Shown one piece after another: positions 1,825 to 58,217 of a DNA stretch of 64,000 bases. How positions within the stretch are numbered: the first letter of the stretch is position 1; the number at the start of each line of letters is the position of its first letter. This stretch comes from Escherichia phage vb_EcoM-VR5. The notes beneath the pieces are model-generated. The model was not told the origin of the DNA and did no database searches. It saw only the letters and a program-made list of their open reading frames with translations. Location: sequence record NC_028881.1; one strand, written 5' to 3'. The translations under genes were made by a program, and so were the position numbers.

Positions 1825-2353
1825 TTTGGGCCTCTTTAGCATATTCGCGGCATTCTTTAATAAAACGATTAAGCTTACGTTGCTGTTTACGACTTTCTAA
1901 TGTATACTCGTCGGCCAAAATAATAAGCTCACCTTTATCGTAATTTTTAATATCAGAGTAAGATGGCCGCCGGTCAACCATTCCAAATAAATCACCGTTT
2001 TCTAGCGCCGCATAGCATACTAAATGATAATCGTCATCAGCATTAATAAGCTGCTTATAATCGCTAGGTTCGTTTAAAGCGTACACCGAATATCTTACTC
2101 CGGCGAATTCAACTCGCTTTATATCTAATCCAAGGTCAATAATTTCTAAAGCTTCTGCAAAAGAAAGGTCTTCTGCTAAAGCAAAAATAAAAGGTAATTT
2201 AGTAGTATAGCTACGGTTATTTGTTCTGCTTAAGAAATCATTAGAATAACCTAGGTCCTGGCGAATTCTATAAAGAACTGCATTAGTTTCATGGGCAAGA
2301 CCGCTATGTTTAAACCAATCAATATTTGATATAAGGTCATCATATAAGCTCAT
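1817..2353 (-). CDS. Hypothetical protein (178 aa)
   Basis: ORF with GGAGAGGAGA ribosome-binding site upstream of the ATG at 2353. Confidence 0.5.
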   Translation of the reverse strand: MSLYDDLISNIDWFKHSGLAHETNAVLYRIRQDLGYSNDFLSRTNNRSYTTKLPFIFALAEDLSFAEALEIIDLGLDIKRVEFAGVRYSVYALNEPSDYKQLINADDDYHLVCYAALENGDLFGMVDRRPSYSDIKNYDKGELIILADEYTLESRKQQRKLNRFIKECREYAKEAQNA

Positions 2354-2376
2354 AATATTCTCCTCTCCTCCAAAGA

Positions 2377-2394
2377 GGGAGACCGAAGTCTCCC
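2377..2394 (-). terminator. Stem-loop terminator (GGGAGAC-tetraloop-GTCTCCC)
   Basis: GC-rich hairpin with 4-nt loop directly downstream of the 2402..2995 gene. Confidence 0.45.
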
Positions 2395-2401
2395 AGTAAC
2401 A

Positions 2402-2995
2402 TTACTTAAGTGAATTGATGTAGTCTTCGATATCAGCTGAAGTCGTATCCATTCCAACTTGAGGGCCTTTAAACGTTTCTACACGCATCAGGGTATCTTC
2501 AATATCAATCTTAGTCAGTGCAGCGATTTCAACAACATCGTCAGCAGTAGCAATACCTAATGCAGCCATATTACGAGTTTCACGGATGTATTCAAGCTTA
2601 ACTGCTAGTTCTTGTCGAGAGTCATCAAGTTCCTTAACCTTAAGCTTGATTTCATTACGCATTTCGATATAATCGTCGGCTTTCTTACGAAGTTGAGTAG
2701 CTGTACGACGATAAAGGAGGCCGAGTTTAGCATGTACCTGGACATCGGCACCTTCAGCAATCAATTTACGGATTTCACGTTCTTTAGAACTAGCCAGTTG
2801 GTCCTTTTCGTTAGCGAGTTCACGAATACGTTTTTCTTCACTTACAGACTTAACGTGAGCAGTCTGGAGCTCGGTAATTTTATCAATTAGAGTAGAAGCA
2901 GCTTTAGTGTATTGGTCTTCAATTGACAGGTTCTGGGCCATTGCGGTACCAAGTTTAGAGCGGATGAATTCAACGATTTTCTTTAAAGTGTTCAT
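2402..2995 (-). CDS. Coiled-coil protein, possibly PspA/IM30-like
   Basis: 197 aa, predicted almost entirely heptad-rich alpha-helix; N-terminal amphipathic helix followed by long charged coiled coil resembling the PspA/Vipp1 pattern; driven by early promoter P1. Confidence 0.45.
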
Positions 2996-3033
2996 AGTAT
3001 TTCCTTCAGTGGTTGTTTCGTTTTGATAGGTCT

Positions 3034-3062
3034 ATAGTATCACGTTTAAAGGTGATGTAAAC
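3034..3062 (-). promoter_or_regulatory. Early sigma70-like promoter P1 (GTTTAC-N17-TACTAT) with A/T-rich upstream region
   Basis: Reverse strand reads GTTTACA..17 nt..TACTAT followed by the conserved leader TAGACCTATCAAAAC. Confidence 0.6.
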
Positions 3063-5670: not shown

Positions 5671-5700
5671 ATAGTATCACCACTAGAGCCCATTGTAAAC
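5671..5700 (-). promoter_or_regulatory. Early promoter P2 (GTTTAC-N18-TACTAT) with conserved leader
   Basis: Reverse strand GTTTACA...TACTATAGCCCTATCAAAAC. Confidence 0.55.
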
Positions 5701-6234: not shown

Positions 6235-6263
6235 ATAGTATCATATTTATAAATGCTGTAAAC
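6235..6263 (-). promoter_or_regulatory. Early promoter P3 (GTTTAC-N17-TACTAT) with a late TATAAATA embedded in the spacer (6244-6251)
   Basis: Reverse strand GTTTACAGCATTTATAAATATGATACTATAGACCTATCAAAAC. Confidence 0.55.
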
Positions 6264-9678: not shown

Positions 9679-9701
9679 TATAAATATTAATATTATTTAT
9701 A
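9679..9701. promoter_or_regulatory. Divergent late promoters: TATAAATA plus-strand 9679-9686 (gene 53) and minus-strand 9694-9701 (gene 4)
   Basis: Exact octamers about 27 nt upstream of each ATG. Confidence 0.65.
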
Positions 9702-36208: not shown

Positions 36209-36843
36209 TGAAACCTGAATTGCTCATCGAACATTGGGGACAACCAGGTGAAATTATCGATGGGGTTCCTATGTTGGAATCTCATGATGGAAAAAATTCT
36301 GGACTTGCCCCAGGCCTTTATATAGAAGGCATATTCATGCAAGCCGAAGTAGTTAACCGTAATAAACGTCTTTATCCAAAACCTATTTTGGAAAAAGCGG
36401 TAGCCAACTATATGGCTGAACAGGTTGCTACTAAACAAGCTTTAGGAGAATTAAACCATCCGCCGCGTGCTAACGTTGACCCTATGCAAGCCGCTATTAT
36501 TATTGAAGATATGTGGTGGAAAGGTAATGACGTTTATGGACGTGCTCGTATTATTGAAGGCGACCATGGTCCTGGTGATAAACTAGCTGCTAATATTAGA
36601 GCCGGTTGGGTGCCTGGTGTTAGTTCTCGTGGTCTAGGTTCTTTAACCGAAACCAATAAAGGATATAAGCGTGTAAACGAAGGTTATAAATTAACCGTCG
36701 GTGTTGATGCAGTATGGGGCCCTTCTGCTCCGGATGCTTATGTAACGCCGAAACAAATTACAGAATCACAAACGGTAGAAACCGATACCAGTGCCGATGA
36801 CGCCTTTATGGCTCTCGCAGAGGCCATGAAAAAAGCGTTATAA
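36208..36843 (+). CDS. 21: gp21 prohead core scaffold protease
   Basis: 211 aa; T4 order 68-21-22. Confidence 0.9.
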   Translation: MKPELLIEHWGQPGEIIDGVPMLESHDGKNSGLAPGLYIEGIFMQAEVVNRNKRLYPKPILEKAVANYMAEQVATKQALGELNHPPRANVDPMQAAIIIEDMWWKGNDVYGRARIIEGDHGPGDKLAANIRAGWVPGVSSRGLGSLTETNKGYKRVNEGYKLTVGVDAVWGPSAPDAYVTPKQITESQTVETDTSADDAFMALAEAMKKAL

Positions 36844-36846
36844 ATA
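36839..36846 (+). promoter_or_regulatory. Late promoter TATAAATA for gene 22
   Basis: Octamer 28 nt upstream of the gp22 ATG, overlapping the gp21 stop. Confidence 0.6.
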
Positions 36847-36873
36847 TTATTATCTAAACAACAGGACTACAAA

Positions 36874-37689
36874 ATGCTTAAAGAACAACTGATCGCCGAA
36901 GCACAGAATATTGATGCTTCCGTTGCTCTTGATAGTATTTTCGAATCAGTTAATATTTCTCCGGAAGCAAAAGAAACTTTCGGCACTGTATTCGAAGCTA
37001 CCGTCAAGCAACACGCCGTGAAACTGGCTGAATCTCACATCGCTAAAATCGCTGAGAAAGCGGAAGAAGAAGTTGAGAAAAATAAAGAAGAAGCTGAAGA
37101 TAAAGCTGATAAGAAAATCCAAGAAGCTGCTGGTCGTTTCCTTGACCACGTCGCTAAAGAATGGATGGCTGAAAACCAGCTGGCTGTTGATAAAGGTATT
37201 AAAGCCGAACTGTTCGAATCCATGTTGATGGGTATGAAAGAACTGTTTGTTGAACACAATGTGGTTGTTCCAGAAGAAGCAGTAGATGTTGTTGCTGAAA
37301 TGGAAGAAGAACTGGCTGAACAGAAAGCCGAAACCGCTAGTCTGTTCGAAGAAGTTTCTAAGCGTGATGCTTATATCAATTATGTCCAACGTGAAGTTGC
37401 GTTGACTGAAGCAACTAAAGACCTGACTGAATCCCAGAAAGAAAAAGTTGGTTCTCTGGTAGAAGGCATGGATTATTCCGATGCATTTGGTAAAAAAATT
37501 GGCGCTATCGTTGAAATGGTTAAGGGTCAGACCGACGTTGAAAAACCAATCACTGAAGCCGCTATAAATAAAACTGAAGACGATGCTGCAGCACTGAATT
37601 ATATTTCGGAAGCAGTTGAAGAAAAAGGCGCTAAGCCTACCCTGTCCTTCGCGGACCTGTCTGCAATCGCAGCATCTCGAATTTCTTAA
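36874..37689 (+). CDS. 22: gp22 prohead core scaffold protein
   Basis: 271 aa, highly acidic helical protein; T4 order. Confidence 0.9.
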   Translation: MLKEQLIAEAQNIDASVALDSIFESVNISPEAKETFGTVFEATVKQHAVKLAESHIAKIAEKAEEEVEKNKEEAEDKADKKIQEAAGRFLDHVAKEWMAENQLAVDKGIKAELFESMLMGMKELFVEHNVVVPEEAVDVVAEMEEELAEQKAETASLFEEVSKRDAYINYVQREVALTEATKDLTESQKEKVGSLVEGMDYSDAFGKKIGAIVEMVKGQTDVEKPITEAAINKTEDDAAALNYISEAVEEKGAKPTLSFADLSAIAASRIS

Positions 37690-37710: not shown

Positions 37711-39270
37711 ATGAAAAAGAATGCATTAGTACAAAAATGGTCCGCTCTGCTGGAAAACGAAGCTCTTCCTGAAATCGTTGGTGCTTCTAAACAAGCTATC
37801 ATCGCTAAAATCTTTGAAAACCAGGAACAAGATATTCTGACCGCTCCTGAATATCGTGACGAAAAAATCTCCGAAGCATTTGGTTCTTTCCTGACTGAAG
37901 CTGAAATCGGTGGTGACCACGGTTATGATGCTACCAATATCGCAGCTGGCCAGACCTCTGGTGCAGTAACTCAGATTGGGCCGGCAGTTATGGGTATGGT
38001 TCGTCGTGCTATTCCTCATCTGATTGCTTTTGATATTTGTGGTGTCCAGCCTCTGAATAACCCTACCGGCCAGGTATTTGCCCTGCGTGCAGTTTACGGT
38101 AAAGACCCTGTAGCTGCTGGTGCTAAAGAAGCTTTCCACCCGATGTATGCTCCGAACGCTATGTTCTCTGGTCAGGGCGCTGCTGAAGCTTTCGAAGCTC
38201 TGGCTGCAAGCAAAGTTCTTACCGTTGGTAAAATTTATTCTCACTTCTTCGAAGCAACCGGTTCTGCACACTTCCAGGCTGTTGAAGCTGTAACCGTTGA
38301 TGCCGCCGCTACTGATGCCGCTAAACTTGACGCTGAAGTTACCAAACTGCTCGAAGCTGGTAAGCTGGCAGAAATCGCTGAAGGTATGGCTACTTCTATC
38401 GCCGAACTTCAGGAAGGCTTTAACGGTTCCCAGGATAACCCGTGGAACGAAATGGGCTTCCGCATCGATAAACAAGTTATCGAAGCTAAATCCCGTCAGC
38501 TGAAAGCAAGCTACTCCATCGAACTGGCACAGGACCTTCGTGCAGTACACGGTATGGATGCAGATGCTGAACTGAGTGGTATTCTTGCTACTGAAATTAT
38601 GTTGGAAATCAACCGTGAAGTTATCGATTGGATTAACTATTCTGCACAGGTTGGTAAATCTGGTATGACCAACACCGTTGGCGCTAAAGCTGGTGTGTTT
38701 GACTTCCAGGACCCGATTGATATCCGTGGTGCTCGTTGGGCCGGTGAAAGCTTTAAAGCTCTCCTGTTCCAGATTGATAAAGAAGCCGCCGAAATCGCTC
38801 GTCAGACCGGTCGTGGTGCTGGTAACTTCATCATCGCTTCCCGTAACGTAGTTAACGTACTGGCTGCAGTTGATACTTCTGTAAGTTATGCCGCTCAGGG
38901 TCTTGGTCAAGGTTTCAACGTTGACACCACTAAAGCAGTATTTGCCGGTGTTCTTGGTGGTAAATATCGCGTTTACATCGACCAGTATGCTCGTGCTGAT
39001 TACTTCACCATCGGTTATAAAGGTTCTAACGAAATGGACGCAGGTATCTACTATGCTCCTTACGTTGCACTGACCCCACTGCGTGGTTCCGATCCGAAGA
39101 ACTTCCAGCCGGTAATGGGCTTCAAAACTCGTTACGGTATCGGTATTAACCCGTTCGCTGACCCAGCTGCTCAGGCACCTACCAAACGTATTCAGAATGG
39201 TATGCCGGACATCGTTAACAGCCTCGGTCTGAATGGTTACTTCCGTCGTGTTTACGTTAAAGGTATCTAA
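37711..39270 (+). CDS. 23: gp23 major capsid protein
   Basis: 519 aa; long blocks recognisably T4 gp23-like (for example GGDHGYDATNIAAGQTSGAVTQIGPAVMGMVRRAIP). Confidence 0.97.
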   Translation: MKKNALVQKWSALLENEALPEIVGASKQAIIAKIFENQEQDILTAPEYRDEKISEAFGSFLTEAEIGGDHGYDATNIAAGQTSGAVTQIGPAVMGMVRRAIPHLIAFDICGVQPLNNPTGQVFALRAVYGKDPVAAGAKEAFHPMYAPNAMFSGQGAAEAFEALAASKVLTVGKIYSHFFEATGSAHFQAVEAVTVDAAATDAAKLDAEVTKLLEAGKLAEIAEGMATSIAELQEGFNGSQDNPWNEMGFRIDKQVIEAKSRQLKASYSIELAQDLRAVHGMDADAELSGILATEIMLEINREVIDWINYSAQVGKSGMTNTVGAKAGVFDFQDPIDIRGARWAGESFKALLFQIDKEAAEIARQTGRGAGNFIIASRNVVNVLAAVDTSVSYAAQGLGQGFNVDTTKAVFAGVLGGKYRVYIDQYARADYFTIGYKGSNEMDAGIYYAPYVALTPLRGSDPKNFQPVMGFKTRYGIGINPFADPAAQAPTKRIQNGMPDIVNSLGLNGYFRRVYVKGI

Positions 39271-39285
39271 GACATAACCTTATTA

Positions 39286-39305
39286 TGGGAGACTTCGGTC
39301 TCCCA
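39286..39305 (+). terminator. Terminator after gene 23
   Basis: TGGGAGAC-TTCG-GTCTCCCA hairpin followed by a T-rich tract. Confidence 0.6.
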
Positions 39306-39319
39306 TTCTTGTTTCTGTA

Positions 39320-39586
39320 CTATACAATCTTGACTCGACGGTTGATAATATCGCGGAAGTCAATACGATTTTCTTGGATTTTCAACCAGTTACCAGATTT
39401 GTCTTTGGTGTGGGTAGAATATTCACCATTCCACCAGAAGTCAGTAGCATAAGTCATGGTTTCGTATTTCTTAACTAACGCATTAACTGCATTACCGTTA
39501 GGATTGCGGCCAAATTTTTCTACCAAGGCTTTGATGTCTTTATCAAGAGCTGAAAGTGTAGTACGAATAAAGTTTAACTTGTTCAT
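39320..39586 (-). CDS. Hypothetical early protein wedged between late genes 23 and 24
   Basis: ORF 39320..39601; likely start MNKLNFIR with AGGAGA ribosome-binding site; its own early promoter P4 directly upstream. Confidence 0.55.
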   Translation of the reverse strand: MNKLNFIRTTLSALDKDIKALVEKFGRNPNGNAVNALVKKYETMTYATDFWWNGEYSTHTKDKSGNWLKIQENRIDFRDIINRRVKIV

Positions 39587-39615
39587 TTTTAATCTCCTCA
39601 TGTTTTGATAGGTTT

Positions 39616-39645
39616 ATAGTAACACGTGAGAACCTTGCTGTAAAC
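39616..39645 (-). promoter_or_regulatory. Early promoter P4 (GTTTAC-N17-TACTAT) with conserved leader
   Basis: Reverse strand GTTTACAGCAAGGTTCTCACGTGTTACTATAAACCTATCAAAAC. Confidence 0.55.
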
Positions 39646-39651
39646 AACTTT

Positions 39652-39659
39652 TATAAATA
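39652..39659 (+). promoter_or_regulatory. Late promoter TATAAATA for gene 24
   Basis: Exact octamer 28 nt upstream of the gp24 ATG, back-to-back with P4. Confidence 0.6.
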
Positions 39660-39687
39660 AACATATACCCTCAATAAGGAAAGCGCA

Positions 39688-40968
39688 ATGGCAAAGATTA
39701 ACGAATTACTGCGCGAGTCAACAACTACTACCAGCAACTCATTGGGTCGCCCTAATCTTGTTGCTTTGACCCGTGCTACCACTAAACTAATTTATCGCGA
39801 TATCATCGCTGAACAGCGTACAAACCAGCCTATCGCTGCGTTATACGGTGTCAAATACCTTACCCCTGATAATGAATTTAGCTTCCAGACCGGTGCTACT
39901 TACGGTGGTGAAGTTGGTTCTAAAGACCGTGAAACTATCCCAGAATTAACAGATAAGTCCCAGGCTATTGCCAAGGGTGGCTACTTTAAGTATCAGAATG
40001 TGGTTTATAAGGCTTTGGTTGCAAGCCCACTCGCATCTACTAGCGCCATAGATTTGTCTGATGCTCTCCAAGAAGGTTTGGTGTCATTAACTTGCCGTCT
40101 TGTCCCTGATGCAGCTCATACCGAGAAATTCGAAGCTGGAGATGTTGAAATTAGTAATGCCGTGTTCCAGGTCAATAAATGGAACGCACCAGTTAAATCT
40201 CGTAAGCTGAAAACGGCTTTGACTGTAGAACTAGCCCAGGATATGGAATCTAATGGCTTTGATGCTCCAGCATTCCTTGAAGACCTCCTGGCTACAGTAA
40301 TGGCCGATGAAATTAACAAAGATGTTCTGCAGTCATTGATTACCGTATCTAAACGTTATAAAGTTACTGGTGTTTCTGATAACGGTATTATCGACCTTTC
40401 TTATGACTCTGCACCAGAATCTGCTCGTAAGCTGTACGAAATGGTTTGTGAAATGAATTCCGAAATCCAGAAAACAACTTCTTATTCCGCTACATTTGTT
40501 GTAGCTTCTTCACGTGTTGCTGCTATGCTTGCTGGTTCAGGTTGGTTAAAACACAAGCCGGAAGATGAGGCTTGGCTCCCGGAAACCGCGTATGGTTATT
40601 TGATTAATGGCTTACCTGTGTTCTGTGATGTGAATAGTCCATTGGATTATGTTACCGTAGGCGTTAAAGAAAACTATGGTGGTAATGAAGTTGTTGGTTC
40701 TATTTTCTATGCGCCGTATACTGAAGGCCTAGATTTAGATGATGAAGAACACGTCGGTGCTTATAAGGTAATTGTCGACCCAGACAGTTTACAACCTTCT
40801 ATTTCTCTGATGGTTCGTTATGCGTTGTCTGCCAACCCTTATACCGTAGCCAAAGATGATAAAGAAGCCCGTGTTATCGATGCAACTAATATGGACTTGA
40901 TGGCGGGCCAGAGCAATATGTCTTATCTGCTTGGTGTTAAATTGCCTAAAATAATTTATGAGGCGTAA
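39688..40968 (+). CDS. 24: gp24 capsid vertex protein (copy 1)
   Basis: 426 aa; gp23-related fold; position after gene 23. Confidence 0.9.
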   Translation: MAKINELLRESTTTTSNSLGRPNLVALTRATTKLIYRDIIAEQRTNQPIAALYGVKYLTPDNEFSFQTGATYGGEVGSKDRETIPELTDKSQAIAKGGYFKYQNVVYKALVASPLASTSAIDLSDALQEGLVSLTCRLVPDAAHTEKFEAGDVEISNAVFQVNKWNAPVKSRKLKTALTVELAQDMESNGFDAPAFLEDLLATVMADEINKDVLQSLITVSKRYKVTGVSDNGIIDLSYDSAPESARKLYEMVCEMNSEIQKTTSYSATFVVASSRVAAMLAGSGWLKHKPEDEAWLPETAYGYLINGLPVFCDVNSPLDYVTVGVKENYGGNEVVGSIFYAPYTEGLDLDDEEHVGAYKVIVDPDSLQPSISLMVRYALSANPYTVAKDDKEARVIDATNMDLMAGQSNMSYLLGVKLPKIIYEA

Positions 40969-42249
40969 ATGCAAAAGATTAACGCACTAATCCATGAATC
41001 AACTCTGACGGCGGCCAACTCGGTCGCTCGTCCTACTCTTCTCTCATATACTAAAGCTACTAACAAACGTATCTTTAAATCACTTGTAGCCGAACAAAAG
41101 ACACGCCAGCCTGTGGCGGCGCTTTATGGTATTCGTGTTCTGAACCCAGCAGATAAAATGACTTATCTTGGCGGCGCAACGTTTGCTGGTGAAATTGGTA
41201 TGTTTGAACGTTCTCAGATTCCAGAGGTAGTAGGTCCTAATGAAGCTTATGTCGTCGGTGATATGTTCCAATTTGAAAATGTTGTTTTCAAAGTACTAGA
41301 AGCATCTCCTTTCGCCGGTACAGCCGAAACTGAGATGGGTGAAGTTATTTCTGAAGCTATTGCTGCTGGTCATATTCGTATGGTTTCTGATGCGGCTCAG
41401 ACTTCTAAATTTGAAAAAGGTCATCCTGAGATTGCCGAAGCCGGATTCCGTATCGATAAATGGCAGACTGAAGTTAAATCTCGTAAGTTAAAAACTTCAT
41501 TAACTGTAGAACTAGCCCAAGACCTAGAATCCAATGGATTCAATGCCCCAGGATTTATCGAAGATATTCTTGGAATCCAGATGGCAGAGGAAATTAATAA
41601 GGACGTACTTCAGTCATTGATTACTGTAAGTTCCCGTTTTAAAGTCCAAGGTGTTTCTGAAAAAGGTGTTCTTAACCTTACAGACCCACAGTATGATAAT
41701 GCCCAAGACCGAGCTCGTACATTGTATTATTATATGTGTGAAATGAACTCAGCGGTCCAACGTAATACATCATTCGCTGGTACATATGCCGTAGCTAGTT
41801 CCCGTTGTGCCGCTATTCTTGCCGCGTCCGGCTGGGTCGAGAAAAAAGATGACCAAGACGAATTAGCTTATGGTGTTCTGAAGAACGGTCTACCACTTTA
41901 TGCTGATGTGAATAGTCCGTGTGATTATGTTATCGTCGGTGTGAATGCAGATATTGGTGAAGGACAGACGGTCGCATCTTTGTACTATGCGCCTTATGTG
42001 GAAGGCCTGGACAACGTAGATGATGAGGGTGATACTTCTGTAGGTGAATTCAAGGTTATCGTTGACCCTGAAAGCTTACAGCCTACCGTCGCCTTGTTGG
42101 CTCGATATGCACTGACAGCAAACCCGTATACCGTTGCCAAAGATGATAAAGAAGCTCGTATTATTGATGGGTCCGATATGGATAAGATGGCTAACCAAAG
42201 TCAATTGAGTTCTTATCTTGGTGTTAAACTTCCACCACTAGAAAAATAA
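40969..42249 (+). CDS. gp24 paralog (copy 2), tandem duplicate
   Basis: 426 aa; clearly homologous to copy 1 along the whole length but substantially diverged (shared blocks WQTEVKSRKLKT, TVELAQDLESNGF, ANPYTVAKDDKEAR). Confidence 0.85.
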   Translation: MQKINALIHESTLTAANSVARPTLLSYTKATNKRIFKSLVAEQKTRQPVAALYGIRVLNPADKMTYLGGATFAGEIGMFERSQIPEVVGPNEAYVVGDMFQFENVVFKVLEASPFAGTAETEMGEVISEAIAAGHIRMVSDAAQTSKFEKGHPEIAEAGFRIDKWQTEVKSRKLKTSLTVELAQDLESNGFNAPGFIEDILGIQMAEEINKDVLQSLITVSSRFKVQGVSEKGVLNLTDPQYDNAQDRARTLYYYMCEMNSAVQRNTSFAGTYAVASSRCAAILAASGWVEKKDDQDELAYGVLKNGLPLYADVNSPCDYVIVGVNADIGEGQTVASLYYAPYVEGLDNVDDEGDTSVGEFKVIVDPESLQPTVALLARYALTANPYTVAKDDKEARIIDGSDMDKMANQSQLSSYLGVKLPPLEK

Positions 42250-42275: not shown

Positions 42276-43283
42276 TTATTTGGATACTAATTCAATCCAC
42301 ACAGCTCGTAGCGTATCTTTAACACACTCAATGAGCTGCTTTTTAACTTCAACAGGATTTTCTGCATCGGTTAATTCTAATTCTTCACGGGACGCCTCTT
42401 CCAAAATATCTTGGACTGTTAGTCCCATTACCTTTCCGAAATCCTTAGGCGTTACTTCACCAATCTTACTGATAACATTGTTAATACGGTTAACAGTCAC
42501 ATAATCAGTGAATTGCCACATCAGGTCCATGTCATCTTGGGACAATACTACTACAGCCTTGATAGGCTTATCGGATTTTTTCTTCTCGCTGAATTTAGAG
42601 TTCTTACATTTAATCGCTACTCGATTTCCATTTGGAAGCCAGGTAGGAACATCAGGTTTCAGTACAAAGCCTTCAGCCGTAAATACTTTGCCTTCAACCT
42701 TTGGAATAAAATCAGTCGAGTTTGCGATAGTCAGGCCTGCATTATCCACCGCAAAATTGTAATCAGGAACCACAGAATCAAAATCATTAGGGAGCTTAAT
42801 AAGGTCTTCAAAGCTACCAGTAGCCAGACATGGAGCCACCTTAAACTTGTGGATAATACAGAAAGCTTCCATCAATGTATCAGTCAGAACAGATTCTGTG
42901 CCGTCGTCTTTAGTAACGCGGATATCGAACACATAAAAATCTTTATCACCATAATCCACATTCTTCTGAATACCTGAACCGGCGAACTCGCCATAAATCT
43001 GGTACGACTGATAATCAATCGATTCAATTAGATGCTGAACAGATTTAATAGAATCAGCATAATTCTTTAAAACAATTTCATAACCATAAAAGTCTTCAGC
43101 AGGAAGAATAGGGCCTGTGCGCTTAGCGCATGTGACTGCGTCACGTTCAATAATTAAACTAAAGTTCGTACCATGAATCTTCTCACGTGCTACCCACTCA
43201 CCATCGGTCATACCATGGGTACGGAGTTTTTCAATGAACTTATTGTTGTAGTGGTTTTCCAGACTGCTATATTTCTTGAACAT
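42276..43283 (-). CDS. rnlB: RNA ligase 2 (Rnl2)
   Basis: 335 aa; N-terminus [13 protein letters not shown] and nucleotidyltransferase motif I EKIHGTNF; T4-like throughout. Confidence 0.92.
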
Positions 43284-43622: not shown

Positions 43623-43640
43623 GTTGAGTTAGTGAAGCTA

Positions 43641-43669
43641 TCTTAACATGGGATTTTTAACTTGTAAAC
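43641..43669 (-). promoter_or_regulatory. Early promoter P5 candidate (GTTTAC-N18-TAAGAT)
   Basis: Reverse strand GTTTACAAGTTAAAAATCCCATGTTAAGAT; weaker -10 than P1-P4. Confidence 0.35.
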
Positions 43670-43760: not shown

Positions 43761-45062
<1,302 letters not shown>

Positions 45063-45071
45063 GGACTACAA

Positions 45072-45890
45072 ATGGCTATTACATTAAGTCCATCTTCAAT
45101 AGACGTAGAATACGGTGACTCTTATACAGTCACTGCTAATATTCCAGATATTAGCCCTGGTTCATCTATTGTGTATAACTGGACTAAGAATAAAAAATTT
45201 ATTAGTTCCGGAACTAATGTATTCACTGAAATAGCATCATCGGTAGAAACATTCAGTATTGCGTGCCGAATTGAAATTATATCACCTGATAAAAACACTG
45301 AATATATTTTATCGGATTCTTGCTTGGTTAATGTTAGTAAAAACATAAAAGCGGACGGTATAAATTCTCAGCTAGTTTATTCACCGGATGTTCATAAAAT
45401 AGGTGACCAAGTTATTCTTTCTGTAGAATCCCACCATGTAGACCCTGGCTATATTAAAGGAGTTATTTGGAAAGATCCATCGGGTAATGTCGTGTCAATT
45501 GGTAAAGAATATACGCATAAGATTAAGACGACAGAAGATGTTGTAGATGTAAAAATAGATTTGGCTTCTGAAAATTATGCATATTACAATAAAACACTTC
45601 AAATTGTTCTTAAAGCTATTGAAGAAGATAATTCGGAGTGTAGTGTAAGATATATTCATCCTTTAGACCACAGGGATTCAGGATACATCTGGATGGGTTG
45701 GTGGGTTATGGACGAAATTGAAAGGGCTACGGTAGAAGGATTAAATTGGAAAGCGCCGGACGGTACTGACCTGAAGTATAAGTGCGACTTGAAAACTCTT
45801 TCTATAATGCTTGACTTATATAATAATGTTGAAGTACAAGAATCAAGGAATGGTTATATTCTAAACAGGGCAGATTTACTTCCAAAATAA
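45072..45890 (+). CDS. Hoc-like paralog: two Ig-like domains plus a Hoc-type C-terminal capsid-binding domain
   Basis: 272 aa; C-terminal YIHPLDHRDSGYIWMGWWVMDEI...VEVQESRNGYILNRADL aligns with the Hoc C-terminus on the opposite strand (YVHPLPVRSTAYIWCGWWVMDAI...VDVQESRNGRIVHRSAL). Confidence 0.7.
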   Translation: MAITLSPSSIDVEYGDSYTVTANIPDISPGSSIVYNWTKNKKFISSGTNVFTEIASSVETFSIACRIEIISPDKNTEYILSDSCLVNVSKNIKADGINSQLVYSPDVHKIGDQVILSVESHHVDPGYIKGVIWKDPSGNVVSIGKEYTHKIKTTEDVVDVKIDLASENYAYYNKTLQIVLKAIEEDNSECSVRYIHPLDHRDSGYIWMGWWVMDEIERATVEGLNWKAPDGTDLKYKCDLKTLSIMLDLYNNVEVQESRNGYILNRADLLPK

Positions 45891-45914: not shown

Positions 45915-47018
45915 TTAATAGACGTAATCGTATATAATACCAGCTTCCAATGCCGAACGGTGGACGATACGACCGTTACGAGATTCCTGTACATCAACTT
46001 CCGGGTAATCACTAAGCATTTTGGCTAATACCGCCAGATGACAATAATATGGTGTATTCTCTTTAGTGGCTTTTTTCCAATCTGTACTTTCAGATGTTAA
46101 TTTCTGAATGGCGTCCATAACCCACCAACCACACCAAATATACGCAGTACTACGAACAGGAAGTGGATGTACATAAATTAAAGGACATTCTTCTGGAACA
46201 ACAGGCTCTGCTTCTGCCACCGTAACAGACTTATTACCTGATTTAACTGAATTTGTAAAGCCTGTTTGCGATGCTGTAACTTCACAAGTATATGACTTCA
46301 AGCCTTCAGTGGATTCCGTTATTGCTCTTGTTGCTTCTGTTGAGTTGTCGTCCCATTTATATGCAAGAGTAGCGCCAGGAATAGCAGGGGACACAGAAGC
46401 TGTCAAATTGAATGGAACATCAACCGTCGCAGTAGACGGGCCTGAAATCTCAACAGTGAACTCAGGAAATGTATTGTTTTCGACCGTAACAACTACTGCA
46501 TCAGGATTAATAACTTGATTGTCATAATCTGCCGCAGAAACGGTAATTTGGCAAGTTAAAGAAACCGGTCCTGCAACAGTAGCGGTACGAGTAATATCTT
46601 TAGTAGTTTCACCAGTAGACCACAAATATGCTATTGTAGCTCCACCTGGTTCACCTGTTACATTAGCCGAAGCGTTATATTCCTGACCAACTTTAACAGT
46701 AGGAGTGGAAGTTGTTAATGTTGCAGTTGCAGCCATAGTCTTATTATTAACCGTGATGGTTGTTTGAGCCTCTGCCGTTTCAGGCTCTCCTTCTTCCGGC
46801 GTTGTGGTGGCAACAACTTTAATTACTTTTGAACCTGCTGGCCCAGCTGCAATATAATCCATAGTAGCAATAACAGAATCTTGTGGAACATCATCAACGG
46901 TCCATACAAAAGATTCGGTACCAGCGACAGCGGCTCCAGCTCCAGTGGCAGTAAAATTAGTTGTTGCACCTATAACCGCTGTAGGTGTTAAAGGGGCAAT
47001 TGATACAGTATAAGCCAT
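45915..47018 (-). CDS. hoc: Hoc, highly immunogenic outer capsid protein (three Ig-like domains plus capsid-binding domain)
   Basis: 367 aa; Ig-like repeats; C-terminal capsid-binding block; adjacent to inh as in T4. Confidence 0.85.
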   Translation of the reverse strand: MAYTVSIAPLTPTAVIGATTNFTATGAGAAVAGTESFVWTVDDVPQDSVIATMDYIAAGPAGSKVIKVVATTTPEEGEPETAEAQTTITVNNKTMAATATLTTSTPTVKVGQEYNASANVTGEPGGATIAYLWSTGETTKDITRTATVAGPVSLTCQITVSAADYDNQVINPDAVVVTVENNTFPEFTVEISGPSTATVDVPFNLTASVSPAIPGATLAYKWDDNSTEATRAITESTEGLKSYTCEVTASQTGFTNSVKSGNKSVTVAEAEPVVPEECPLIYVHPLPVRSTAYIWCGWWVMDAIQKLTSESTDWKKATKENTPYYCHLAVLAKMLSDYPEVDVQESRNGRIVHRSALEAGIIYDYVY

Positions 47019-47746: not shown

Positions 47747-47768
47747 GTATAAATATAACTATATTTAT
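47747..47768. promoter_or_regulatory. Divergent late promoters: TATAAATA plus-strand 47747-47754 (uvsW) and minus-strand 47761-47768 (inh/hoc)
   Basis: Exact octamers on both strands. Confidence 0.6.
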
Positions 47769-47783
47769 AACTGAGAATTAGAC

Positions 47784-51632: not shown

Positions 51633-51644
51633 TATTTATAAATA
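51633..51644. promoter_or_regulatory. Palindromic bidirectional late promoter TATTTATAAATA (genes 26 and 51)
   Basis: Perfect 12-nt palindrome containing TATAAATA on both strands, placed between divergent genes. Confidence 0.6.
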
Positions 51645-58187: not shown

Positions 58188-58217
58188 ATAGTACCACATC
58201 CTTGTGGTGTTGTAAAC
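58188..58217 (-). promoter_or_regulatory. Early promoter P6 (GTTTAC-N18-TACTAT)
   Basis: Reverse strand GTTTACAACACCACAAGGATGTGGTACTAT immediately downstream of the alt stop. Confidence 0.5.

Follow-up and report, generated by a model that had tools for sequence, protein, structure and literature searches.

An antisense gene with an early-type promoter between the late genes 23 and 24 of Escherichia phage vb_EcoM-VR5, a probable accessory cassette

The presence of a short gene on the opposite strand between two late head genes of a T4-type phage raises the question of what it encodes, when and from which promoter it is transcribed, and how it came to occupy this position. Antisense cargo at the junction of genes 23 and 24 is already textbook knowledge for T4, which carries segD there. 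Here, the junction was analyzed in a stretch of 64,000 nt from Escherichia phage vb_EcoM-VR5 (NC_028881.1), in the following called the window, the positions of which are used throughout. We consider it probable that the ORF belongs to a self-contained early transcription unit, i.e., an accessory cassette located in a slot between the late genes 23 and 24, and those parts of the explanation that concern the transcription unit and the cassette are well supported.

The phage is a JS98-like coliphage of the genus Dhakavirus within the T4-type Straboviridae; the best match to the region was phage ESCO10 with 97.6% over 39250-39700, and the value for JS98 was 92.9%. The local gene order is gp21, gp22, gp23, the minus-strand ORF, gp24a, gp24b and rnlB, with the following features around the junction:

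37711-39270, plus strand: gp23, major capsid protein; flanks the cassette on the left and serves as its left recombination arm
39320-39586, minus strand: 88-aa protein-coding gene (ATG 39586, stop TAG 39322-39320), product MNKLNFIRTTLSALDKDIK...RRVKIV
39594-39599, minus strand: Shine-Dalgarno sequence GAGGAG, 7 nt before ATG 39586, read from the sequence
39688-40968, plus strand: gp24a, vertex protein, right flank of the cassette
40969-42249, plus strand: gp24b, paralogue of gp24a, directly after it
42276-43283, minus strand: rnlB

The tandem paralogues gp24a and gp24b (39688-42249, plus strand), with 426 aa each, abut without a spacer; the pair is likewise annotated in JS98 and VR26, and T4, G28 and HX01 possess a single gp24.

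The 88-aa gene and its protein family

The original prediction had placed a protein of about 88 aa on the opposite strand between genes 23 and 24, and its position, orientation and size were found to be as claimed, the ORF being antisense to both neighbours, gp23 and gp24a. An alternative in-frame ATG at 39601 would yield 93 aa, i.e., five extra residues, but it is an unlikely start codon since it lies inside the Shine-Dalgarno sequence, the GGAG core of which is retained in most of the aligned lineages. The 88-aa form, which is also the one annotated in JS98, is therefore the likely product. Comparison of eight ORF alleles revealed that third codon positions hold 35 of the 51 variable sites and that pairwise dN/dS values range from 0.03 to 0.14, which indicates strong purifying selection; on account of this third-position bias and of the low dN/dS values the ORF is regarded as a translated gene. 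That the ORF arose by chance in the spacer between two genes, for which nothing but the small size and the lack of an annotated function could be put forward, has next to no probability, as this is refuted by the third-position bias and is at odds with the conservation of the family and the confidently predicted fold described below.

The protein matched PHROG 6003 with an E-value of 1.1e-48 over residues 1-87 of the 90-position profile and shares 94% identity with JS98 orf173 (EpJS98_0173, AAU29301), which is found at the same place and in the same orientation between 23 and 24a; the five amino-acid differences between the two are not material. Both PHROG 6003 and JS98 orf173 are annotated merely as 'hypothetical protein' or 'unknown function'. 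Homologues were detected by tblastn in 224 phage records, and the matches in 68 records extend over at least 80% of the region. Absence or lack of conservation in close relatives, which had been named as a finding that would speak against the original prediction, was not observed, as all close relatives possess the ORF in conserved form. Its antisense position between gp23 and gp24 was found in Dhakavirus, in some Tequatroviruses such as G28, in Gaprivervirus VR26 (60% identity), in Mosigvirus HX01 (31%) and in two uncultured T4-like contigs (25% and 56%). Comparison of the junction across these relatives showed that the position of the ORF is kept between genera and that the contents of the slot are polymorphic. 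In addition, two non-T4-like phages encode homologues with 34-39% identity within same-strand arrays of small ORFs, an arrangement typical of early regions.

A profile search, exhaustive over 1.8 billion representative proteins, returned no more than nine matches, three of which were artefacts: the long matches P0025 and P0026 are repeat proteins with scores that sum over the repeats, and P0023 is an apparently chimeric assembly that joins an unrelated N-terminal sequence to a match of 32 residues. The IMG/VR scans for the ORF returned sequenced isolates alone, or nothing. It is a small family and, as far as the contexts examined reach, confined to phages. Scans of the window protein and 19 family members against Pfam, NCBIfam and PADLOC yielded nothing above threshold. 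DUF5380 was rejected as a Pfam assignment, with 12.6 bits and an E-value of 0.13 against a gathering threshold of 29 bits; five of the 19 members matched it, the best with an E-value of 0.075. None of the PADLOC defence profiles matched the window protein, and two isolated weak matches occurred among the 19 members. A degraded SegD, or a remnant of its DNA-binding domain, was likewise discarded as an identity for the protein, given that BLASTP against T4 SegD gave an E-value of 0.55 over eight residues, and the Pfam scan found no GIY-YIG catalytic domain in the 88-aa protein.

For the monomer, AlphaFold2 with an alignment of 19 sequences returned a model with a pLDDT of 94 and a pTM of 0.79, in which helix 3-25, helix 31-48, a beta-hairpin (52-61 and 67-71) and helix 77-87 follow each other (alpha-alpha-beta-beta-alpha). 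Length and predicted fold are retained at 25-40% identity, and the invariant residues are M1, K3, F6, the N30-G31-N32 motif in the loop or cap before helix 2, and Q71. The protein is basic (net charge +6, pI 9.8) and contains no cysteine; in the family, 18 of the 19 members carry a net charge of +3 to +8, with pI values of 9.2-10.1. By eye, the sequence shows no hydrophobic stretch long enough to point to a membrane segment or a signal peptide. PDB sequence profiles gave no match, and neither a structural nor a sequence relative was detectable outside this small phage family.

Promoters and hairpin of the intergenic region

Early promoters of T4 are recognized by sigma-70 and combine a GTTTAC -35 element, an extended -10 element TGnTATAAT and an A-rich upstream region. 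The region between the ORF and its two neighbours contains the following elements:

39639-39645, minus strand: -35 element GTTTACA of the T4 early-promoter type, 17-nt spacer to the -10 element (sigma-70 scan)
39616-39624, minus strand: extended -10 element TGtTACTAT with the hexamer TACTAT at 39621-39616 (sigma-70 scan)
39646-39669, minus strand: A/T-rich stretch upstream of the -35 element (ATTTATAAAAGTT...), overlapping the late promoter of the other strand
39652-39659, plus strand: late-promoter octamer TATAAATA for gp24a, 28 nt before ATG 39688
39285-39316, plus strand: intrinsic terminator of the gp23 transcript, hairpin ATGGGAGAC-TTCG-GTCTCCCAT (39285-39306) followed by the tail TCTTGTTTCT

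An early promoter of its own had been proposed for the ORF, and this is borne out by the site at 39645->39616, in which the TTTACA hexamer (39644-39639, minus strand) is followed after 17 nt by the hexamer of the extended -10 element TGtTACTAT. As in T4 early promoters, GTTTACA, a 17-nt spacer, a TG-extended -10 element and an A/T-rich upstream stretch occur together, and the site points in the same direction as the other early and middle genes; unlike in T4, the -10 hexamer is TACTAT instead of TATAAT. The traits of the promoter class, namely a GTTTAC(A) -35 element, a spacer of 16-18 nt and a TG-extended -10 element TAnnnT, are all found at this site. Transcription would start at about 39609 on the minus strand, and the A/T-rich stretch at 39646-39669 might act as an UP-like element.

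In the 64-kb window, the composite motif GTTTACA-N12-16-TGNTAMKAT was counted six times, always on the minus strand (3034-3062, 5671-5700, 6235-6263, 39616-39645, 43640-43669 and 58188-58217), and was absent from 100 shuffled sequences. These six copies look like the early-promoter set of the phage within the window, and since the promoter of the ORF is one of them, it is assigned to the phage's own early-promoter class. TACTAT is the -10 variant preferred by this phage (five of the six copies). The copy at 6235-6263 contains TATAAATA (6244-6251, minus strand) within its spacer, such that an early promoter coincides in part with a late promoter of the same strand.

The spacer between the ORF and gp24 was aligned for seven lineages, T4 segD included. 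TTTACA was found in six of them, among these upstream of T4 segD, and TGTACA in the seventh (L017); the -10 element is TACTAT, TATTAT or CATAAT, usually preceded by TG. The distance between both elements is constant at 17 nt in all seven lineages, whereas the spacer sequence itself varies freely, and hexamers and spacing persist while the encoded protein diverges to 25-31% identity. In phage G8, the slot of which is empty, no GTTTACA element was found in the gp23-gp24 interval. The conserved hexamers are, judged from this alignment, the phylogenetic footprint left by a functional sigma-70 promoter, irrespective of its cargo.

Comparison with the segD locus of T4 supports the same arrangement: slot, antisense orientation and the combination of terminator hairpin and late promoter are alike, and in both phages a promoter of the type TTTACA-17-TGnTAnTAT abuts TATAAATA, although the cargo is unrelated, lacks a nuclease domain and comprises 88 aa as compared to the 223 aa of SegD. 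In the T4 genome, positions 107253-107281 (minus strand) read TTTACA-17-TGaTATTAT, with 10 of 12 matches to the consensus and 21 nt upstream of the segD ATG. This reading of the T4 sequence, by which a segD promoter would be present, conflicts with a review of 2010 according to which bioinformatic searches had found no segD-specific promoter in T4 (PMC2988022). Time-resolved omics data of T4, in which segD RNA was classed as early and SegD protein as middle (PMC9697503), fit the proposed promoter with respect to the RNA class. The shared promoter abutting the late promoter of gp24 is, hence, a concrete candidate for the promoter of T4 segD.

From the promoter class and the timing of the T4 segD RNA, we infer that the ORF is expressed early. 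Expression at middle or late times, for instance by read-through from minus-strand promoters beyond gp24b and rnlB, with the sigma-70-like site being weak or unused, appears quite unlikely. Such read-through was proposed for T4 segD, taken to have no dedicated promoter (PMC2988022), and would agree with the accumulation of SegD protein at middle times (PMC9697503), but it would imply transcription through 2.6 kb in which gp24a and gp24b lie antisense, and it leaves the fixed spacing of the hexamers in seven lineages, with a spacer free to vary, the fit of the site to the six-member early motif and the early class of the T4 segD RNA (PMC9697503) unaccounted for. Moreover, neither a MotA-box-like TGCTT nor a minus-strand TATAAATA was found near the ORF, and a middle or late promoter was rejected on this sequence evidence.

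The octamer TATAAATA is enriched in the window (19 copies as compared to 7.8 expected). Upstream of gp24 it is invariant in all aligned lineages, and for gp24a it stands where a T4 late promoter is expected, i.e., at about -10 and shortly before a late gene. The early -35 element and this octamer are divergent and 7-8 bp apart, in agreement with the claim of back-to-back promoters made in the original prediction, by which the region upstream of the early -35 element overlaps the late octamer (39652-39659, plus strand). Because TATAAATA lies so closely behind the early -35 element, one module of about 100 bp would drive divergent early and late transcription. Pairs of TATAAATA on opposite strands, 4-23 bp apart, were also seen at 9679-9701, 47748-47769 and 51633-51644 of the window; they look like divergent late promoters at points of strand switch.

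On the other side of the ORF, the gp23 terminator consists of a 9-bp UUCG hairpin and a T-rich tail, with a folding energy of -15.2 kcal/mol and a z-score of -3.9 on the plus strand. The same hairpin (39285-39306) also forms on the minus strand, 13 nt past the ORF stop, where it lacks a following U-run; the terminator scan scored 39285-39316 on the plus strand alone and predicted no intrinsic terminator for the minus-strand transcript of the ORF. The early transcript could in this situation run antisense into gene 23, and the early -35 element and its upstream region physically overlap the late promoter; both observations would suit a role at the level of RNA or DNA, by which antisense RNA into gene 23 or competition between the promoters would tune gp23 and gp24 and the peptide would be incidental. 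We regard such a role as very improbable, considering that the amino-acid sequence is under strong purifying selection, that the length and predicted fold of the protein are maintained in distant homologues and that phages with an empty slot express gp24 from TATAAATA without the module.

Contents of the 23|24 slot and exchange between genera

Four states of the 23|24 slot were found, namely empty, ORF alone, ORF with segD, and segD alone. Many Tequatroviruses and T4-like phages of Klebsiella or Salmonella have an empty slot; in G8 it measures 83 nt in all, and in empty-slot phages TATAAATA directly follows the gp23 terminator. The ORF without segD is present in the window phage, JS98 and G28. 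In IME08 (Dhakavirus) and LF82-9 (Mosigvirus), a gene of segD type follows the ORF 3 nt downstream on the same strand. Among the 85 records with a Dhaka-type allele, 38 have this ORF-segD junction and 47 have the ORF without segD. T4 carries segD, which codes for a GIY-YIG homing endonuclease, antisense in the same slot, and a segD-only junction of T4 type was detected in 53 records.

The sequence identities at the junction reveal how the contents are exchanged. Window and Tequatrovirus G28 are 90-95% identical over 39250-39700 as compared to 50-88% in the flanks, more precisely 68-90% towards the 3' end of gp23 and 50-85% within gp24. No difference separates G28 from the empty-slot Tequatrovirus G8 as far as the gp23 stop codon and again from the gp24 ATG, but the two differ in all that lies between, including the terminator hairpin; the hairpin moves with the cassette, G28 having the version of the window and G8 a different one. 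Within Mosigvirus, LF82-9 and HX01 share 99-100% identity to the left and to the right of the slot, and its contents have been swapped: LF82-9 contains the Dhaka-type ORF and an endonuclease gene, HX01 the resident allele with 31% identity. One junction of the swapped tract falls within the final approximately 50 nt of gp23, the other at the ORF's ribosome site (the comparison covered 1950-3000 of the LF82-9 sequence, L009, against HX01, L004). Over the ORF and the half of the endonuclease gene next to it, the LF82-9 tract shares 92-100% identity with IME08. Based on the patterns of window/G28, G28/G8 and LF82-9/HX01, it is concluded that homologous recombination in the conserved flanks carries the cassette from genus to genus.

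The original prediction had further noted that insertions at this position are often mobile or accessory, which agrees with segD in T4, the empty slots of Tequatroviruses, the phages with ORF and segD, and the elevated identity of the cassette. Presence/absence polymorphism at a fixed site and identity above that of the flanks are traits that it shares with mobile elements. As to autonomous mobility, the 88-aa ORF is the sole ORF of the cassette, and no nuclease, recombinase or transposase domain was found.

As segD so often accompanies the ORF, endonuclease-stimulated gene conversion may contribute to the movement of the cassette. This might be extended to a functional tie between the ORF and SegD, with the ORF being co-converted cargo or a modulating or protective partner that owes its spread to cleavage of the SegD type and not to a host-directed function. 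Such a tie would fit the 38 records in which segD directly follows in the same transcription unit, the replacement of the resident allele in LF82-9 by a tract of ORF and endonuclease gene in a background otherwise almost equal to HX01 (99-100%), and the use of the same promoter for segD alone in T4. We nevertheless hold it to be unlikely: the window phage, JS98, G28 and 47 of the 85 records do without segD, as do the divergent alleles in Gaprivervirus, Mosigvirus and the uncultured T4-like phages, the homologues in non-T4-like phages have no adjacent endonuclease, and T4, in turn, has segD without the ORF. Furthermore, in work of 2018 attributed to Sokolov et al., T4 SegD reportedly did not drive the homing of its own gene, which also counts against this tie.

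A further patch of the window, 36750-37050, which comprises the end of gp21 and the start of gp22, is 95-97% identical to G28 amid flanks of 55-88%, suggesting that it may be another recent tract of recombination between genera.

Proposed course of expression and role of the product

For the self-contained early unit, we propose that the host RNA polymerase would transcribe the ORF in the first minutes of infection and that use of the promoter would end once the phage blocks region 4 of sigma-70, after which just the late promoter of the module would be active. The early transcript would end at the hairpin common with gene 23, or be stabilised by it. The promoter is retained whichever cargo follows, and the cargo has been swapped between genera by recombination in the conserved end of gp23 and in the region of promoter and ribosome site.

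Since the ORF is missing from T4 and from many relatives, it is considered a dispensable accessory factor of host takeover or counter-defence that is probably of use under certain conditions. Its product would be a small, soluble and basic protein of alpha-alpha-beta-beta-alpha fold without a catalytic signature. Among conceivable functions, stoichiometric binding to a nucleic acid or to an acidic protein of host or phage seems the most likely, a guess that we offer tentatively; the conserved basic charge is weak evidence of nucleic-acid binding. By analogy, the protein resembles small non-essential T4 early proteins such as AsiA, Arn and Dmd, which work by binding to factors of host or phage, in its size class and early-type promoter, in being dispensable and patchily distributed across relatives, and in its fast sequence divergence, although nothing similar to them in sequence or structure was found. 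A bolder version, in which the protein would found a new fold and neutralise a factor or a defence system of the host early in infection, spread on a portable-promoter cassette by SegD-assisted conversion, with 23|24 serving as an 'accessory socket' and the promoter explaining segD expression in T4, is rather unlikely when taken as a whole.

The gene is an ordinary and not a surprising one, already deposited and clustered (JS98 orf173, PHROG 6003; >200 phage records), and a hypothetical protein since the JS98 genome, such that it matters little in itself. The literature search found no paper on orf173, nor on the transcriptomes of Dhakavirus, Mosigvirus or Gaprivervirus. The AV110 screen of early proteins selected its genes by homology to T4 and would miss the ORF, as the phage tblastn search gave no T4 match. 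What the locus does offer is a confidently predicted, basic early protein of orphan fold as a candidate host-interaction factor; with the four allelic states of the 23|24 junction, a clear natural case of cassettes being exchanged among genera of the Tevenvirinae; and, with HX01 and LF82-9, a near-isogenic pair usable for measuring the fitness effect of the cassette.

Downstream of the junction, the window contains two ORFs at 43761-45890 (plus strand), between the gp24.3-like region and hoc (45915-47018, minus strand). The first codes for 433 aa with collagen triple-helix repeats (Pfam E-value 4e-36) and the second for 272 aa without a Pfam match. At the corresponding site of JS98, gp24.3 is followed directly by hoc, without both ORFs, and the pair is possibly an acquired fibre or decoration module.
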